Positions 1 through 45,671 are shown, counted from the first letter of the stretch. The stretch: DNA of 64,000 nt from Candidatus Azambacteria bacterium (GCA_003455995.1 DMPO01000001.1:14945-78944), one strand, 5' to 3'. The notes: generated from the sequence alone by a model not told the origin. A program made the numbers and translations.

Positions 1-519
1 TTTGTTTATTTTTTCCAGCAATTTTCCGATTTCTTTAATCGGCTGTATCGTTCCGATTTCGTTGTTGGCGTAAATAACACTAATTAAAATCGTGTTATCT
101 TTTATCGCTTTTTCCAGATCGGCAATTTTTATTAATCCCGTTTTATCAACCGTCAAATAAGTTATCTCGTGTCCGCTTTTTTCCAATTCCTTCAATGGCT
201 CCAATACTGATTCATGTTCTATTTTTGTGGAAATAATATGAAATTTTTGGACATTCTTTACAATTCCCAGAATTGCAAGGTTATTCGCCTCTGTTGCCGA
301 GCCGGTAAAAATAATTTCCGAAAAATCACAATTAAAACATTGCGCGATTGTTTCTCGCGCCTTATCTACCGCCGCTATCGCTTCTTGGCCGAATGAATGA
401 GTGGAAGAAGCGTTGCCGAATTTTTCGCTAAAATACGGCATCATCACCTTTAGCACTTCCCTATCAACCGGCGTCGTTGCGGCAAAATCAAGATAAATCT
501 TGTTGTTTTTCTTAGACAT
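1..519 (-). CDS. Cysteine desulfurase (class V aminotransferase, IscS/NifS-like), N-terminal part; 3' end runs off window
   Basis: Reverse-strand translation from ATG at 517-519 gives MSKKNNKIYLDFAATTPVDREVLKVMMPYFSEKFGNASSTHSFGQEA...FTGSATEANNLAILG, typical of the IscS/NifS N-terminus. It is absent from the ORF track because no stop lies in the window. Confidence 0.75.
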   Translation of the reverse strand, partial: MSKKNNKIYLDFAATTPVDREVLKVMMPYFSEKFGNASSTHSFGQEAIAAVDKARETIAQCFNCDFSEIIFTGSATEANNLAILGIVKNVQKFHIISTKIEHESVLEPLKELEKSGHEITYLTVDKTGLIKIADLEKAIKDNTILISVIYANNEIGTIQPIKEIGKLLEKINK

Positions 520-1288
520 GTTCCAGAGTGGCGTTGCGTTCTTTGACTTCCTGTTCAGCTTTGGCGCGCCAGTCGCGGCCGGCGCACAATTCGTGATAGG
601 CGCAAAAATCACAGACAAAATTTACGGTCCATTTCCCCCGCTCTTTGTCAAAAACCACCGGATCCGACACTGGCGGAAGCTCGTCCATTTTCCAAGAATT
701 ATTCAAAATTTCCAACTGGTCAATGACGGGTTTGATGGCGCTTTCGGAATAATCTACGGGAATAATCAAGCGATTCAAATCGTCTCGGGAAACATAAATC
801 AGCCGACCCTGCAGATTGGAAAAATTTATTTCCGGACAATCCTGATGGCCGTAATTGCGCAACCGCCATAAGTAAAAAAGCGCTTGCAGTTTATGCTGGG
901 GCTGGGGTTGCTTATTCTTCATTTTATATTTGAAACTGAAGGAATTAGTCGATTTTATTTCGTAAAGAATCGGCTTGCCGCCCTCGTATAAAATTAAATC
1001 GACTTTCCCCGACGCTTCATATTCCGGCGCTTCGATTCTCAATTGTTCGGCAATCAAATGCCCCGATTGCTTTACTTTATTAACAATCCACTCTTCGACG
1101 ATCTTACCCACCTCCATGATACCCATTCTCCCCGGCGGGATGATTGATGTCGGAGGCAGTCCTTTGCGGCGATAAAAGGCGCCCCTCAAACAGGAATTCA
1201 GATCCGTCGCCCACCAGCTTTTCTTGGCGTAGGGCTCGCGGACAAAACTTTCGTTTATTATTTTGTCTAAAAAAGTGAAGGAGTCCAT
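512..1288 (-). CDS. Cas4/RecB-family PD-(D/E)xK nuclease with Fe-S cluster cysteines
   Basis: Carries an N-terminal Cys (NSCLRG), motif II D (DLILYEGG), motif III E-x-K (LYEIKST) and a QhxxY-like LQALFY. The C-terminus has Cx2Cx5C (CDFCAYHELC), the AddB/Cas4 4Fe-4S signature. Confidence 0.6.
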   Translation of the reverse strand: MDSFTFLDKIINESFVREPYAKKSWWATDLNSCLRGAFYRRKGLPPTSIIPPGRMGIMEVGKIVEEWIVNKVKQSGHLIAEQLRIEAPEYEASGKVDLILYEGGKPILYEIKSTNSFSFKYKMKNKQPQPQHKLQALFYLWRLRNYGHQDCPEINFSNLQGRLIYVSRDDLNRLIIPVDYSESAIKPVIDQLEILNNSWKMDELPPVSDPVVFDKERGKWTVNFVCDFCAYHELCAGRDWRAKAEQEVKERNATLEHV

Positions 1289-29016: not shown

Positions 29017-29129
29017 ATATTTAAAATTTTCAATTATTAATTTTCAATTTTCAATAAATGTTTCAATTTTTGAACATTAATACATTAAAAAATTCATTAT
29101 AAATTAGAAATTTGAAATTTGAAATTAAA

Positions 29130-29262
29130 AATTGCGAACTAATGTTCGCAAACAACAGAGCTAAAAGCTTTTGTTCTCGGAGAGACTTACCGCGCCCTTC
29201 GTAGCTTTAGCGAAGAAGGGTATCTTGCTCTCTGTCTGCGAACATTCTCACTCTATCAAAAA
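29130..29262 (-). promoter_or_regulatory. Possible L10 (rplJ) leader structure
   Basis: The long 5' UTR upstream of rplJ has complementary segments (GCGAACTAATGTTCGC; CGAACATTCTCAC...). Its position matches the L10 autoregulatory leader, but the structure is not verified. Confidence 0.25.
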
Positions 29263-29295: not shown

Positions 29296-29997
29296 ATGTT
29301 TTTTGCGCCACTCTTCTATTTTTTTGTGGTTGCCGGAAAGAAGAACTTTAGGAACTGGATATTTTTTATTTTTATATTTAATGACTTCCGGACGGGTATA
29401 TGTCGGAACGCCGACGCCGTATCTTTTTTCTTCAAGCGATTCGTCTTTGCCTAAAACGCCCGAAATGTGGCGCGACACCGCGTCAACGACGATCATTGCC
29501 GGTAACTCTCCTCCCGTTAAAACATAAGGACCGATAGATAATTCGCTAATTTTTAATTTCAAATTTCTAATTATTTTTTTAATTCGTTCGTCTATCCCTT
29601 CGTAGTGACCGGCAATCATTACAATATGTTTATATTTTTTTGCGAAGTCGCTCGCCATTTTAGAATTAAATTGTTTGCCCGAAGCGGAAAAAAGAATTAC
29701 AAGGGGGTTTTTCAACCCCTCTTTTTTTCTCCCCTTATCAGGGGAGAATTTATTGAGCGCTTTTGCAAGCGGTTCGATTTTGAACACCATCCCCGCTCCT
29801 CCGCCGTATGGTTTATCGTCAACCCGCCCGAATGACCATTCGGTCGGGCGGGCTTTCTTATGTTTGTCGTTAGTAAAATCGCGGAGATTGACTATATTTA
29901 TTTTTATTTTCCCGCTTTTCCGCGCGCGTTTAATAATACTCTCGTTTAGATAGGAATCGAAAATTTTCGGAAAAATTGTAATTATGTCGAATTGCAT
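29287..29997 (-). CDS. trmD: tRNA (guanine37-N1)-methyltransferase TrmD
   Basis: SPOUT fold; conserved ...GHYEGIDERI... and GGELPAM motifs. Contains a ~30-aa insertion (KFSPDKGRKKEGLKNP...) relative to typical TrmD. Confidence 0.9.
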   Translation of the reverse strand: MQFDIITIFPKIFDSYLNESIIKRARKSGKIKINIVNLRDFTNDKHKKARPTEWSFGRVDDKPYGGGAGMVFKIEPLAKALNKFSPDKGRKKEGLKNPLVILFSASGKQFNSKMASDFAKKYKHIVMIAGHYEGIDERIKKIIRNLKLKISELSIGPYVLTGGELPAMIVVDAVSRHISGVLGKDESLEEKRYGVGVPTYTRPEVIKYKNKKYPVPKVLLSGNHKKIEEWRKKHQK

Positions 29998-30008
29998 ATT
30001 GCTTAACC

Positions 30009-30038
30009 AAAACCCCTCCGCAACTGCGGAGGGGTTTT
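30009..30038. terminator. Perfect palindromic terminator AAAACCCCTCCGCA-ACT-GCGGAGGGGTTTT downstream of the KH gene
   Basis: A 12-bp GC-rich stem flanked by A4 and T4 runs. Confidence 0.65.
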
Positions 30039-30046
30039 GGAATAGA

Positions 30047-30367
30047 TTATAGTTGTCTTAAATCGTCAACAACTTGATCCATATCTCTTGTCGGTCTTTC
30101 TCTCACGGGACGAGTCGAACCCTCCGGCTCTTCTATCTTCAAATTGACGCGCGCGTTGTGACGGGCACCAATTATGCGAAGCAGAGTTCGAATGGCTTTC
30201 GCGGTGGATCCCTGTCGGCCGATAAGCATTCCCATATCTTCTTGGTTTACTTTAAGGTCTAAAAGGACTCCCATCTCGTCCACCTTGCGGTCAATTTTGA
30301 CATCATCCGGATGATCAACAATCGACTTCACAAGGTACTCAAGAAATTCCTGATCAACATTAGCCAT
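30047..30367 (-). CDS. KH-domain RNA-binding protein (KhpA-like, UPF0109)
   Basis: KH GxxG loop (IGRQGSTAKAIR); lies between rpsP and trmD as in conserved operons. ATG 30365-30367 is used. Confidence 0.75.
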   Translation of the reverse strand: MANVDQEFLEYLVKSIVDHPDDVKIDRKVDEMGVLLDLKVNQEDMGMLIGRQGSTAKAIRTLLRIIGARHNARVNLKIEEPEGSTRPVRERPTRDMDQVVDDLRQL

Positions 30368-30458
30368 TTCTTTGAACAATCTTTTTAAAGTTTTAGTAGG
30401 TCGACCTCCCCAAAGGGGTAGCTACTAATTGTCCGCAATATATCAAAAATTGATATGC

Positions 30459-30487
30459 TTGTCAAACGATTTTTTAATACTTACCAT
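30459..30487 (+). promoter_or_regulatory. Promoter-like TTGTCA-17-TACCAT immediately upstream of repeat copy 1
   Basis: -35 TTGTCA (30459-30464), 17-nt spacer, -10 TACCAT (30482-30487). Confidence 0.35.
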
Positions 30488-30536
30488 GGAGCCAAGAGCC
30501 GGCAAACCGGATGGACGAACCGAGAAACGGTGTTTA
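30484..30536 (+). repeat. 53-bp direct repeat, copy 1 (CCATGGAGCCAAGAGCCGGCAAACCGGATGGACGAACCGAGAAACGGTGTTTA)
   Basis: Matches 52 of 53 nt with 31513-31565. The flanks diverge completely on both sides. Confidence 0.85.
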
Positions 30537-30667
30537 TTGATTTTCCCAGCCCTGTGGACAACTGTTTGCAACTGTCAACGCATTGTGCTAATATAAGAAC
30601 GATCGAAAGATCGAGATTTCTAAAGCTTGGAGGCCTCGCAAGAGGTCTCCTTTGCGTTTTTATTTTG
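30494..30667 (+). ncRNA. Candidate sRNA (~170 nt) whose 5' module is repeat copy 1
   Basis: Predicted TSS is ~7 nt after the -10. Internal CGATC-GAAA-GATCG hairpin. Intrinsic terminator GGAGGCCTC-GCAA-GAGGTCTCC plus TTTGCGTTTTTATTTT (30629-30667), overlapping the 3' end of the convergent NYN gene. Confidence 0.4.
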
Positions 30668-31403
30668 TTATTTCTTTTTTCCAACAAATGAAATCCTTTA
30701 TTTTCTGTATATCAAATATGAATAACCCGCCCTCGACTAATTCGCTTAATTCACTGGAAACCCTTCTCGCAGTGGCAAATAATGTAACTCTTTTATCGTC
30801 TTTTAACAATTGTCTAACGGGATCGGCGAAATCACTATCCCCGCTCCATAAAATAAAATTATCAATATTATTTTTATCATAATCAATTAACATATCCCTT
30901 CCGATTTCAACATCAAAATTACATTTTAAATCTTCAACCGATTTGACGCCTTGATTGTTAAGTTGCTTTAACTGATTGTTTAAAAATTCTATCGTTTCAA
31001 TTGTTAATTTTTGTAATAAAGGTTTTCTAATAAATTCTTTTAAAATATTCGGCGAATTCGGGGGGACACTGGAAACATCTATAGAAAGCCGCATTATTTT
31101 TACAGGTTTTGTCTTAACATCGTATCCGAATCTGCCGATATCTTTTACAAACCGTTCTGATTCAGCGTCTCCTATTAAAGTGCCATTGTAAAATTTGACG
31201 GCGTTGATAGTGTCAAAAGAATCTAAAAATTGTTTTAATCTTTTGGGCTCAATATGCCAACCCAGTTTAACCGACCATGGCTTAACATTCGCATAGTCAA
31301 TATAAATATTTGTTTTTCCGCCAAAAATAATTTCTAATTCTTTAATCCTGTCGGGGTGCTGGTTGGATAATTCTTTTAATCTCGGAGTTTTAGGATTGAA
31401 CAT
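30660..31403 (-). CDS. NYN/LabA-like (DUF88, PIN-like) predicted RNase
   Basis: N-terminal NIYIDYANV and central ILWSGDSDFADPVRQLLKDDKRVTLFA match NYN-domain catalytic motifs. Flanked by the 53-bp direct repeats. Confidence 0.6.
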   Translation of the reverse strand: MFNPKTPRLKELSNQHPDRIKELEIIFGGKTNIYIDYANVKPWSVKLGWHIEPKRLKQFLDSFDTINAVKFYNGTLIGDAESERFVKDIGRFGYDVKTKPVKIMRLSIDVSSVPPNSPNILKEFIRKPLLQKLTIETIEFLNNQLKQLNNQGVKSVEDLKCNFDVEIGRDMLIDYDKNNIDNFILWSGDSDFADPVRQLLKDDKRVTLFATARRVSSELSELVEGGLFIFDIQKIKDFICWKKEITK

Positions 31404-31512
31404 TCATTTTTTAATTAGTTTTATTCGTGGATTATTATAAGATAATCTCAAATTTATGTAAATAAAAAAATCGCTTCACAATCGTGAAATGATTTTTTTT
31501 GCGCGATACTCG

Positions 31513-31565
31513 CCATGGAGCCAAGAGCCGGCAAACCGAATGGACGAACCGAGAAACGGTGTTTA
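31513..31565 (+). repeat. 53-bp direct repeat, copy 2
   Basis: CCATGGAGCCAAGAGCCGGCAAACCGAATGGACGAACCGAGAAACGGTGTTTA, one G/A difference from copy 1. Confidence 0.85.
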
Positions 31566-31929
31566 GAGGAGAGAGATTTATACCCTCTCCGAATAAACGG
31601 GTCGGGCATTTCTAACTCGCACTGTCACCCGATCCGATTCCGTTTACCGACTCGTTGGCTCGATAGCGATTATCTTTTCTGTTTCGTCCTCCGCAACTTG
31701 GAACCATTCCAAGCGCCGGACTTAACAAGAGGATTTATCCTCTTCTGAAACTTCCACTGAATAAGTGAAAATCTCGGAATAAGAGGGAGAGTTGCGTATC
31801 TCCCATGGCTTGCCGAAACCACTCGGCTGCCATACGGCGGGGAACCCTCCCCGCAAACTTCTTGATGGATCGAGTCTAGTCCCATTTTGGGAATCCCTCG
31901 TCAAGCCGTCCATCAACGGCAACGGCAAC
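31566..31929. other. GC-rich, ORF-poor structured non-coding region (strand and class unknown)
   Basis: About 360 nt with many local and long-range complementarities (GAGGAGAGAGATTTATACCCTCTCC; AAACGG...CCGTTT; GGGAATCCC; a GGCAAC x3 run). GC is well above the window average. Only short overlapping ORFs are present, none with a start context. Confidence 0.4.
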
Positions 31930-32235
31930 CTATGAGAGCGCTGCCCCTATAACTTCTATCGCGGCCTTGCGGCCTGCCTCCATCCCCCGGCCATGCGCAA
32001 ACCTGGCCGCATTCTGGCCCTGCCCGGACGGGTCTCTCTTAGACTCTCCGGACTCATCTGCCCACCTGGTATACTCTACATATGCCAGGTAGCACTCCTT
32101 TTTATAGGCCGCATTAGCGGCCTTTTCTGCCACTGCCTTTACAGCAGCGGCCTTTTCTGCCACTGCCTTTACAGCAGCGGCCTTTGCGGCTTCAGTGCCA
32201 AAAATTCGGCACAAAAAATTTACTAATTTTTTCAT
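31930..32235 (-). CDS. Small Ala/Lys-rich protein with internal 10-aa tandem repeat; GC-rich gene
   Basis: Strong SD (GAAGGAGGAAAAA-ATG) at ATG 32233-32235. An exact 30-nt tandem duplication at 32121-32180 encodes AAVKAVAEKA x2. Gene GC is ~55-60% versus ~38% for the window. Confidence 0.5.
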   Translation of the reverse strand: MKKLVNFLCRIFGTEAAKAAAVKAVAEKAAAVKAVAEKAANAAYKKECYLAYVEYTRWADESGESKRDPSGQGQNAARFAHGRGMEAGRKAAIEVIGAALS

Positions 32236-32454
32236 TTTTTCCTCCTTCGCCCCGCCTCCCTTTCGGTGAGGGCTTATGGGCACTCCATACTCTAACCGCT
32301 AGTAAGAAGGTTTCTGGAGACCAGACGGGTTTAGGTTTGCTCTCCAGCTTATCTCATTACTAAAAAAGGCGATTGAGAGCTCTTTACTTACTATACTTAA
32401 TATAGAGAAGAGAGTTTACAATCGCCTTTTTACAAGATTTACGGCTCTTATACG

Positions 32455-32482
32455 CCGCCTGTCCGCCTCTGGCGGAACCCTC
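32455..32482. repeat. GC-rich palindromic element (copy 3 of 3, partial), in the 5' region of the small protein gene
   Basis: CGCCTGTCCGCCTCTGGCGGAACC contains the exact 15-mer CCGCCTCTGGCGGAA. Confidence 0.5.
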
Positions 32483-32559
32483 TCCTCTAAAGAAAGTATT
32501 TAATATTAAAATGTTAATATTCAGCCAACTTTCACCTTACCTTTATAGTATAGCGTATC

Positions 32560-32605
32560 TAACAAACCCTGTCAAGTTTTTTGACGGGTTTTGGCGGGTT
32601 TTGGC
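32560..32605 (-). terminator. Hairpin plus T-tract downstream of rpsP
   Basis: On the minus strand AAAACCCGTCAA-AAAAAC-TTGACAGGG-TTTGTT. Confidence 0.45.
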
Positions 32606-32887
32606 TTAAATAAGCGGTTTTTTGGATGCTTTATGAACCGGTTTTTTGGCGCCGGAAATTATGCCCTGCGAAATAAGCAAATTATGAATTGAATCCGACG
32701 GTTGGGCGCCCTTGCCAATCCAATATAGGATCCTGTCTTTATTCAAACTGACTTTCTTTGTTTTGCGGTCAATGTTGCCGAGCAACTCCAAATACTTCCG
32801 GCGCGGGCCGGCGGTTTTTTGAGTCGCCACGACTCTGAAAGTCGCGGTATGTTTTTTTCCTACTTTCTGCAATTTAATGGTGAGCAT
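32606..32887 (-). CDS. rpsP: 30S ribosomal protein S16
   Basis: MLTIKLQKVGKKHTATFRVV... matches the S16 N-terminus. Confidence 0.9.
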   Translation of the reverse strand: MLTIKLQKVGKKHTATFRVVATQKTAGPRRKYLELLGNIDRKTKKVSLNKDRILYWIGKGAQPSDSIHNLLISQGIISGAKKPVHKASKKPLI

Positions 32888-32899
32888 ATTATTTAAAAC

Positions 32900-34534
32900 T
32901 TACATTTCCGGCATCCCCGACATTCCGCCGCCCATTGGCGGGTTATTTTTTTCCGGCAGATCGGCCACAAATGTTTCGCTGGTCAACAGCATCGAAGCCA
33001 CCGAGACGGCATTCTGCAGGGCGGTTCGGGTAACTTTCAACGGATCTATGATGCCGTCCTTAATCATATCGGCGTATTCTCCCGTGACGGCATTAAAACC
33101 GATTCCTTTTTCTTTGCTCCCCACAACTTGAATCACCTCATTGTCGTCTTTGTTGGAATTTTTGGCAATGGCGCGCATCGGCGCTTCCAGCGCGTTGACA
33201 ACTAAATTGACGCCCTTGGCTTCGTCGCCGAATTCGGTTTCGCCGACCAATTTGGCATTCTTGATTTCCTTAGCCGCTTCAAACAGCGCCACTCCGCCTC
33301 CGGAAACAATCCCCTCCTCAATGGCCGCTTTGGTCGCCGAGACGGCGTCCTCAATCCTGAATTTCTTTTCCTTCATTTCAATTTCGGTGGCCGCGCCGAC
33401 TTTAATGACGGCCACGCCGCCGGCCAGTTTCGCCAGCCGTTCCTGCAGTTTTTCTTTGTCAAAACCGGATTCGGTCTTTTCCATCTGCGACTTGATTTGC
33501 TTGATTCTTTTCTCTATTTCCGCCTTTGAACCGGAACCGCCGACAATGGTGGTATTGTCTTTGGTGGCGACCACTCTTTTGGCGCTGCCCAAGATATCCA
33601 AATCGGCGCTTTCCAATTTCATTCCCTTATCTTCGGAAATAACTTCGCCGCCGACAATGGCCGCGATATCTTCCAACATCTCTTTCCGCCGATCGCCAAA
33701 CCCCGGGGCTTTAATCGCCAGAACATGAAAAACGCCTCTCAATTTATTGACCACCAGAGTCGCCAGCGCTTCGCCTTCAATATCATCGGCGATAATGACC
33801 AGATTTTTATTTCCCGATTTCACCACTTTTTCGAGCAATGGCATTATTTCGGCCAGCGAGGAGATTTTCTTGTCGGTTATTAAAATAGAGGGTTTTTCCA
33901 AAACCGATTCCATCCGCTCGGTGTCGGTTACCATATAAGCGCTGACATAGCCGCGATCAAACTGGAGCCCTTCAACCAATTCATAATCCACGCCCAGAGT
34001 TTGCGCCTCTTCAACGGTTACCACGCCTTCTTTGCCGACTTTATTGATCACCTCGGCAATCAGCGAGCCCATTTCTTCGTCGTTGGCGGAAATGACGGCA
34101 ACATCTTTTATCTTTTCTTTGGTTACCGGTTTGGCATTCTTCTTTAATATATCAGAGACCTTGGACATCGCTTTGTCCATCCCCTTTTTCAAAACCATCG
34201 AGTTGGCGCCTGAATTGATTAAATTGATGCCTTCGGCGATCATCGCCTGCGCCAAAACCACCGCCGTGGTGGTGCCATCGCCGGCGACATCGTTGGTTTT
34301 TGAGGCCGCCTCTTTCACCAGCGAAGCGCCGATATTTTCAAACTTGTCTTTCAATTCAATGTCTTTGGCGATGGTGACACCGTCGTTGGTGATGGTCGGC
34401 GCGCCGTAGCCCTTGTCCAAAACGACATTGCGGCCGCGAGGACCGAGAGTAATTTTTACGGCATTGGCCAATTGGTCAACGCCCCTCTTGATAGCTTCTC
34501 TGGCGGCAACGCCGCTGATTATTTGTTTTGCCAT
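32900..34534 (-). CDS. groL: Chaperonin GroEL
   Basis: AAKQI... N-terminus, ATP-binding GDGTTTA and a C-terminal GGM-like tail ([10 protein letters not shown]). Confidence 0.97.
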
Positions 34535-45419: not shown

Positions 45420-45503
45420 AACAAAAAGCCCGTGTCCACTAGGTCTTGCGACCCAATATTTCTTTCGAAATATTGCCCATCGAAGAGTTGTAGAACACGG
45501 GTT
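45420..45503 (-). terminator. Long compound hairpin plus T-tract downstream of the 45672..46391 gene
   Basis: Outer stem ACCCGTGT/ACACGGGC encloses an inner AATATTTC-TTTC-GAAATATT hairpin, followed by TTTTTGTTT on the minus strand. Confidence 0.45.
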
Positions 45504-45671
45504 CTATATCTTCGATGGGTCTTTGTACCATGCCAGTATTGCTACTTGGTTTAGGCCACTTACTTATTAAATTTTATACTTATTACTATATTACAAATTT
45601 TTCTAAAAATCCAATAACAAATAAGCGGAGCTTGCTTCAGTTCTCAGTTAAGGTGTAGTGATTAAAAAAAC

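Follow-up and report, generated by a model that had tools for sequence, protein, structure and literature searches.

A direct repeat flanking a NYN/LabA-like gene cassette in Candidatus Azambacteria: probable scar of an insertion beside a long predicted RNA hairpin

Why should two nearly identical 53-nucleotide (nt) sequences stand on either side of a single gene in a bacterial genome? We addressed this question for a locus of Candidatus Azambacteria bacterium (GCA_003455995.1, DMPO01000001.1:14945-78944), using the whole 64,000-nt stretch of DNA as our window; positions are those of the window unless preceded by the handle of another locus (e.g. L002). The two copies flank a gene for a NYN/LabA-like protein located between rpsP, encoding ribosomal protein S16, and khpA, and are referred to below as copy 1 (khpA side) and copy 2 (rpsP side). 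A first-pass annotation made from the sequence had proposed that they are functional modules forming the shared 5' ends of two plus-strand small RNAs (sRNAs). We favour a different explanation, to which we give a probability of roughly 0.6, namely that the pair is an insertion-associated duplication, the scar of a mobile NYN cassette that settled beside a long hairpin.

The 53-nt cores (30484-30536 and 31513-31565) differ at a single position (30510 G versus 31539 A), exactly as the first-pass annotation had reported. Its description of the flanks as unrelated on both sides is correct for one side only; on the other, identity reaches 60 nt (30477-30536 and 31506-31565 on the minus strand, 95% identity), and beyond this lies a 5-nt indel and then a weak extension of copy 1 to ~30460, with matches at 13 of 15 nt. 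The whole duplication therefore measures ~77-82 nt, and alignment of the two copy regions places its end within the -35 box of the khpA promoter. The first-pass annotation had preferred a functional module to a simple duplication, and a larger recent duplication, which by its own account would speak against that view, is in part what is seen. Divergence between the copies is even, at 3/60 in the core and 2/15 plus the indel in the tail, and the core differences consist of the transition at 31539 and a CG-versus-TA dinucleotide. Such evenness fits a duplication of moderately recent date that is decaying neutrally, and not one in which the 53-mer is under selection. Both copies, 1029 nt apart, are also found in the independent assemblies L001, L008, L009 and L013, so the pair is not an assembly artefact. 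They are identical across all strain contigs, which is uninformative because these contigs are 99.8-100% identical overall.

No third copy of the 53-mer occurs in the window at three or fewer mismatches (shuffled sequence also gave 0, and the chance expectation is 0). An exact 21-mer of the repeat matched this organism alone (L094) among Joint Genome Institute (JGI) metagenome contigs, and neither half of the repeat had a match in the viral collection. The absence of copies elsewhere in these collections argues that the 53-mer is not a dispersed functional module. Scans for transfer RNA (tRNA) and transfer-messenger RNA (tmRNA) indicated that the repeat is not the 3' end of either, and Rfam 15 gave no family match over it, whether at gathering threshold (whole window) or at E <= 10 (30300-32700). 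A diversity-generating retroelement with template and variable repeats was considered and rejected, because a reverse transcriptase is absent and the changes between the copies are not specific to adenines.

All genes of the region are on the minus strand, and read in that direction the order is rpsP (32887-32606), a GC-rich element that we call X (~31505..32340), copy 2, an AT-rich hairpin, a promoter-like site, the NYN gene, a terminator hairpin, copy 1, the native khpA promoter, khpA (30367-30047) and trmD (29997-29287). Copy 1 sits directly upstream of the khpA promoter (30437..30465, minus strand; TTGACA-17-TATATT with a TG, 11/12), which is followed by a conserved hairpin in the 5' untranslated region (5'-UTR) and then by khpA itself. 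Both the promoter and the 5'-UTR hairpin align with those of the Azambacteria relative L014, and homology ends at the -35 box, indicating that the 53-mer is not ancestral khpA upstream sequence. For a broader comparison of the rpsP-khpA gap, we retrieved 80 related genomes via TrmD. The two genes are neighbours ~100-1000 nt apart in nearly all relatives in which both were detected, versus 2.2 kb here, and none of the 80 gaps contains a NYN gene, the 101-residue open reading frame (ORF101) of X or anything similar to X. Relatives without NYN between rpsP and khpA are also without X (80 genomes) and, as examined in L014, without the 53-mer.

What distinguishes the two copies is their relation to X. 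On the minus strand, the repeat unit is predicted to coincide almost exactly with the 3' strand of one terminal ~50-bp helix closing X; the 5' strand of this helix (31620..31673) occurs once. In the minimum-free-energy fold, 48 of 60 nt of copy 2 pair with 31620-31673, through 41 Watson-Crick and seven G.U pairs. The minus-strand fold of 31935-31460 has a free energy of -202.5 kcal/mol (z = -7.9), and the 196-nt helix domain folds to -84.3 kcal/mol (z -6.0) on the minus strand against -68.0 kcal/mol (z -3.6) on the plus strand. The duplex of copy 2 with its partner arm is similarly strand-dependent (-69.5 kcal/mol for the minus strand and -50.5 for the plus strand, compared with -30.3 +/- 4.4 for shuffles), and copy 1 would still form a duplex of -60.0 kcal/mol with the same arm. 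At the three positions where the copies differ, copy 2 has Watson-Crick pairs throughout, and copy 1 would have two mismatches and one G.U pair. Copy 1 is thus most likely a slightly decayed, displaced duplicate, with copy 2 retaining the best modelled pairing with the partner arm. The two small minus-strand hairpins that the first-pass annotation had drawn within the repeat can be formed but are uninformative, since on its own the 60-mer shows no more structure than shuffled sequence does (z 0.0 to -1.5).

Element X has a GC content of 50-60%, compared with roughly 30-45% in its surroundings, and comprises the orphan ORF101 (32235-31930, preceded by an AGGAGG ribosome-binding site) and ~425 nt of structured non-coding sequence densely filled with short perfect hairpins. 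It has no second copy within the window. Rfam 15 returned no match at gathering score over 30300-32700 and, at E <= 10, only four chance-level matches, all in X outside the repeat; a phage database search with X produced only chance matches to its alanine-rich repeat. When ORF101 was compared with 5.8 billion clustered and 1.84 billion representative proteins, only the protein itself and a 91-aa strain variant were recovered. ORF101 is alanine-rich, and a 30-nt tandem repeat at 32116-32190 encodes its AAAVKAVAEK units; the strain variant (P0122, in L008-L012) lacks exactly one 30-nt unit, leaving 91 aa instead of 101. A retron, 6S RNA, a group II intron domain V and an integron attC were each considered for the long hairpin and rejected, as Rfam gave no match and their defining motifs are absent. 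X is best regarded as likewise a lineage-specific insertion and a predicted RNA element. Between copy 2 and the NYN promoter-like site lies the AT-rich hairpin (an inverted repeat at 31464..31499, minus strand, followed by a T-run), which probably terminates X. Its 5' arm is a mutated duplicate of the khpA -35 region, in which TTGACA has become TTCACG.

The sequence enclosed by the repeats has the properties of a self-contained mobile unit. The NYN cassette (30558..31468, minus strand) consists of a promoter-like site (31462-31434; TTTACA-17-TATAAT, 11/12), the NYN/LabA-like gene (31403-30660) and a convergent sRNA gene described below. The 247-aa product matches Pfam PF01936 (E = 6e-15) and the PADLOC model for LabA-like, NYN family nucleases (E = 7e-12), and its N-terminal ~145 residues have no family match. 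More than 2000 relatives were found, of which the best 120 are 64-91% identical and, where the source is named, are annotated as Patescibacteria or Paceibacterota. One of these is in L002, a fairly close relative of the organism. Window 31468-30558 aligns with L002:3936-4846 at 88.5% identity over 911 bp, and homology is lost abruptly at both ends. The unit in common comprises the promoter, the gene and ~100 nt downstream, and the repeats begin 44 nt and ~21 nt outside it, so that the repeat boundaries bracket the shared cassette. The cassette in L002 stands between genes for a PDDEXK nuclease and an aminotransferase, within 1.3 kb of sequence (L002:3608-4915, cassette included), and on either side of this interval L002 aligns with window 2984-523 (78.5% identity over 2470 nt) and with 498-1 (76.8% identity over 508 nt). 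At window 498-523 the same two genes abut, their stop and start codons overlapping in ATGTCTAA. It follows that the same cassette occupies different loci in the two organisms and that the site used in L002 is unoccupied in our window.

Taken with the helix, these observations suggest the following course of events. Originally X, with the 3' strand of its helix, was probably followed immediately by the khpA promoter. A cassette of ~0.97 kb would then have inserted between the 3' end of X and this promoter, at or in the -35 box, and ~60-80 nt of target would have been duplicated on insertion, the 53-mers being the well-preserved core. The duplicated stretch would begin where the 3' strand of the X helix leaves the loop, take in that strand and finish within the khpA -35 box. 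Copy 2 would have remained on X, where it pairs with the 5' strand, and copy 1 would have been displaced ~1 kb downstream to lie beside khpA, where it is decaying. The upstream duplicate of the -35 box (TTGACA to TTCACG) would now serve as the 5' arm of the hairpin at 31499-31464. That the insertion caused the duplication is inferred, as is the route. The route we favour is integration of a circular intermediate carrying a copy of the target end, with a recombinase acting in trans or since lost; duplication during break repair would be equally simple. If the repeat is a displaced copy of the target, the 53-mer needs no function of its own. A transposase-mediated insertion of the insertion sequence or miniature inverted-repeat element type was rejected, since the duplication is 60-80 bp rather than 2-14 bp, the cassette ends carry no inverted repeats and no transposase ORF was found.

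The proposed history resembles that of integrative elements, such as tyrosine-integrase islands, which target the 3' ends of tRNA and tmRNA genes and leave duplications of the attachment (att) site. As with those islands, the insert lies between direct repeats of tens of bases. The repeat begins in a stretch predicted to form a hairpin within a structured RNA locus and continues across the 3' end of that locus; its upstream copy would leave the predicted RNA whole, and a displaced fragment lies downstream beside the original flank. Several observations weigh against a scar of this kind, some of them as differences from the islands. The target here is an orphan predicted RNA, and as X has no homologues its helix is a thermodynamic prediction alone. 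The ~1-kb insert carries no integrase or other recombinase gene, only NYN and the sRNA, and a tblastn search with two tyrosine recombinases, a weak test, found nothing convincing in the window. An empty site of the form rpsP-X-(single copy)-khpA was sought through exact look-ups of NYN and khpA and of a TrmD relative, without success: the insertion is present in each of the 24 long contigs read, and the contig of the closest relative, L106, begins only 383 nt upstream of trmD. Direct repeats were not found around NYN in five other loci, suggesting that insertion of this cassette does not regularly produce a long duplication. The search for more 53-mer copies in the organism's own genome, moreover, covered the 64-kb window only.

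Among the rival explanations, the one that survives best holds that the copies are live attL and attR sites, and that a recombinase from another part of the genome can still excise or re-integrate the cassette. The first-pass annotation had mentioned recombination sites as a fallback, which comes close to the explanation we favour, but that the sites are still active seems to us unlikely. Direct repeats of 53-80 bp do flank a demonstrably mobile unit, and tyrosine integrase genes occur near the NYN cassettes of L005 and L006. Against this, the arrangement is the same in 24/24 long contigs retrieved for NYN and 24/24 for khpA, the two proteins are present in near-equal numbers of blocks (134 and 137), and the weak tblastn test already described detected no integrase in the window. 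The short contigs L011 and L012, from independent samples, share an end point at window 31560, which is 6 nt inside copy 2. These shared ends could mark a structural variant, but excision between the copies predicts a variant that first diverges at 31539, not 31559, and for this reason they do not look like simple excision; they may stem from reduced coverage over the hairpin or from an undetected structural variant.

Alternatively, the 53-mer could be a functional minus-strand cis-element that was kept twice, for example a 3'-end stabiliser, an RNase III processing site or an insulator immediately ahead of the NYN and khpA promoters, either copy of which could pair with the single 5' arm on read-through transcripts. 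Strong minus-strand promoter-like sites follow 20-50 nt after the end of each copy, the -60 kcal/mol duplex of copy 1 with the 5' arm can still form, and the copies do not vary between strain contigs. The last point loses its force given the overall identity of those contigs, however, and the khpA upstream region of L014 lacks the element, no repeat flanks NYN at the other loci tested, and the copies have diverged evenly, as under neutral decay. We consider this explanation improbable, and somewhat more so than live att sites.

The proposal that each copy is the 5' module of a plus-strand sRNA, one running ~170 nt to the terminator at 30629-30650 and the other into the GC-rich region, appears very improbable. 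A plus-strand TTGTCA-17-TACCAT is indeed present before copy 1 (30459-30487), and a genuine strong plus-strand terminator with a T-run lies 93 nt past it (30629-30650 onward), as the first-pass annotation had noted. The promoter-like site scores only 9/12, though, and mirrors the strong khpA -35 box, and nothing comparable precedes copy 2, from which a scan of 29900-32950 found no plus-strand terminator-like site as far as 32798. The repeat also pairs better as minus-strand RNA, and the terminator belongs to a conserved unit that has its own promoter-like site 35 nt upstream of it and occurs in genomes without the 53-mer. Equally remote is the idea that the 5' arm, loop and 53-mer form a mobile DNA hairpin resembling a miniature inverted-repeat element or an attC site, with the extra copy a partial second element: single-strand hairpin sites are recombination substrates, and the ~170-nt imperfect inverted repeat with ~50-bp arms resembles miniature inverted-repeat elements, but one arm alone is duplicated, there are no more copies in the 64 kb or the scanned collections, the seven G.U pairs make the helix strand-specific, the arms by inspection carry AGCCAAC and CTTGGCT in place of the integron core sites (RYYYAAC and GTTRRRY), and the weak tblastn test detected no integrase in the window.

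If the terminator beside copy 1 does not end a transcript that begins in the repeat, to what does it belong? A plus-strand sRNA convergent with the 3' end of NYN and ending at this terminator does seem to exist, judging by sequence conservation, but it would be ~65 nt long (~30599-30665) rather than ~170 nt and would start from its own promoter-like site rather than from the 53-mer. The predicted gene (30566..30668, plus strand) has a -35 hexamer TTGCAA (30566-30571), a 17-nt spacer and a TG-extended -10 hexamer TAATAT (30589-30594), together scoring 8/12, followed by a first hairpin with a GAAA loop (30600-30613) and by the terminator hairpin GGAGGCCTC-GCAA-GAGGTCTCC (30629-30650), the T-run of which overlaps the NYN stop codon (30660-30662). 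A terminator hairpin directly past the NYN stop, a second small hairpin and a promoter-like site are present at 9/9 distinct NYN loci, the other eight homologues being on the minus strand of their loci (L002:4740-4806, L005:4737-4805, L006:4740-4808, L096:3754-3821, L099:3737-3805, L103:1576-1644, L104:2718-2787 and L095:3761-3828). The last of these was the only locus recovered in a viral-contig search with the NYN gene (51% identical) and served only as the outgroup for the sRNA alignment.

In this nine-sequence alignment, 96.6% of cells are paired and six of the nine terminator pairs have compensatory changes, a level of covariation matched by 0/500 shuffles. Together with this covariation, strand-specific features support a predicted RNA antisense to NYN. 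One terminator G.U pair is invariant in all nine sequences, where the sense strand of NYN would instead have an A.C mismatch, and the loops of both hairpins are GNRA (UUCG in the outgroup) only on the antisense strand. The promoter-like site has a spacing of 16-18 nt throughout, with its -10 element at a fixed distance from hairpin 1. The -35 element reads TTGACx at 7/9 loci and the -10 element TAnnnT at 9/9; five of the nine loci pass a 9-of-12 promoter scan threshold, and the hexamers of the other four were read directly from the sequence. When a covariance model built from the nine sRNAs was run over 974 kb of Patescibacteria DNA, those nine sites were its only matches. Shorter NYN-domain paralogues, without the sRNA motif, are located a few kb from the main cassette in L005 (1546-2181) and L103 (2823-3233), and the covariance model gave no match beside them. 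The NYN-linked sRNA has no match in Rfam 15 and nothing corresponding to it was found in the searched literature, and the NYN-sRNA module thus appears to be undescribed. In the 2017 classification that includes the NYN.COG1432 / LabA-like family, no member had been studied for nuclease function, and an associated sRNA is not mentioned (PMC5499597).

The neighbours of NYN differ in every locus retrieved. They include integrases in L005, the hsdM and hsdS genes of a type I restriction operon, between which the cassette lies, in L006, Mrr and rpoB in L096, PemK-like genes in L099, DivIC and RF-1 in L103 and an NgoPII-type restriction-modification system in L104. No tRNA gene directly abuts any of the other NYN cassettes, the nearest being ~0.7 kb downstream, in L103. 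A broader reading of these data is that NYN and the ~65-nt sRNA constitute an undescribed two-part mobile module of the Patescibacteria, in which the antisense RNA may control the nuclease mRNA in a toxin-antitoxin-like or defence-type arrangement; the module would insert next to hairpin-forming or terminator sequences, and the 53-mer would record one such event, in which one strand of the target hairpin was duplicated. We offer this reading tentatively and regard it, taken as a whole, as doubtful.

Two known kinds of system offer partial parallels. Homing-endonuclease genes of phages are free-standing selfish gene cassettes, and the NYN cassette is similarly a lone nuclease-family gene with its own promoter and terminator, intergenic between conserved genes and at different loci among relatives. 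Unlike those genes, it carries a conserved antisense sRNA, and we know of no DNA-cleaving or homing activity among NYN/LabA proteins. In some type I toxin-antitoxin pairs, such as TxpA/RatA and BsrG/SR4 of Bacillus subtilis, the antisense RNA is convergent with the toxin gene and overlaps its 3' end. The NYN cassette likewise has a convergent predicted small RNA, the terminator region of which reaches into the 3' end of the NYN gene, and the pair moves as a unit, often among restriction-modification, PemK and Mrr genes. The protein is, however, a 247-aa soluble NYN-domain protein rather than the small, usually hydrophobic membrane peptide of such pairs.

Other features of the region were recorded alongside the repeat. 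The khpA 5'-UTR hairpin (UUAGUAGCUACCCC...GGGGAGGUCGACCUACUAA; 30385-30430, minus strand) is conserved in L014:5400-5460 with an identical outer stem and a substituted apical part, a pattern suggestive of a leader element of the khpA-trmD operon. Just past rpsP there is a strong minus-strand promoter-like site (TTGACA-17-TATACT, 32575-32547), followed after ~110 nt by a hairpin with 26-bp arms, an A-tract and a T-tract (32431-32363); the interval 32357-32575 (minus strand) could encode a separate ~180-nt sRNA or be the rpsP terminator region. AT-rich inverted repeats at 29084-29133 and 29548-29583 (26-36 nt, 83-92% complementary, ~420 nt apart) have one arm in the rplJ leader region and the other within trmD. 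A LOOT RNA (Rfam RF03000, 75.4 bits) is located at 45441-45557 on the minus strand, and in L006 (~680-800) a translated match suggests a LOOT-related sequence beneath the over-called N-terminal part of an integrase ORF.

As a duplication on either side of an insertion, the repeat would be of a familiar kind and modest in itself. If our explanation is right, it would be a dated footprint of the movement of a single-gene cassette in the small, streamlined genomes of the Patescibacteria, in this case into the conserved rpsP-khpA-trmD operon. Its study has as a second by-product an orphan, strongly structured GC-rich element within an AT-rich genome, and the highly conserved NYN/LabA-like gene, together with its predicted structured antisense sRNA, would provide a concrete handle on this protein family.

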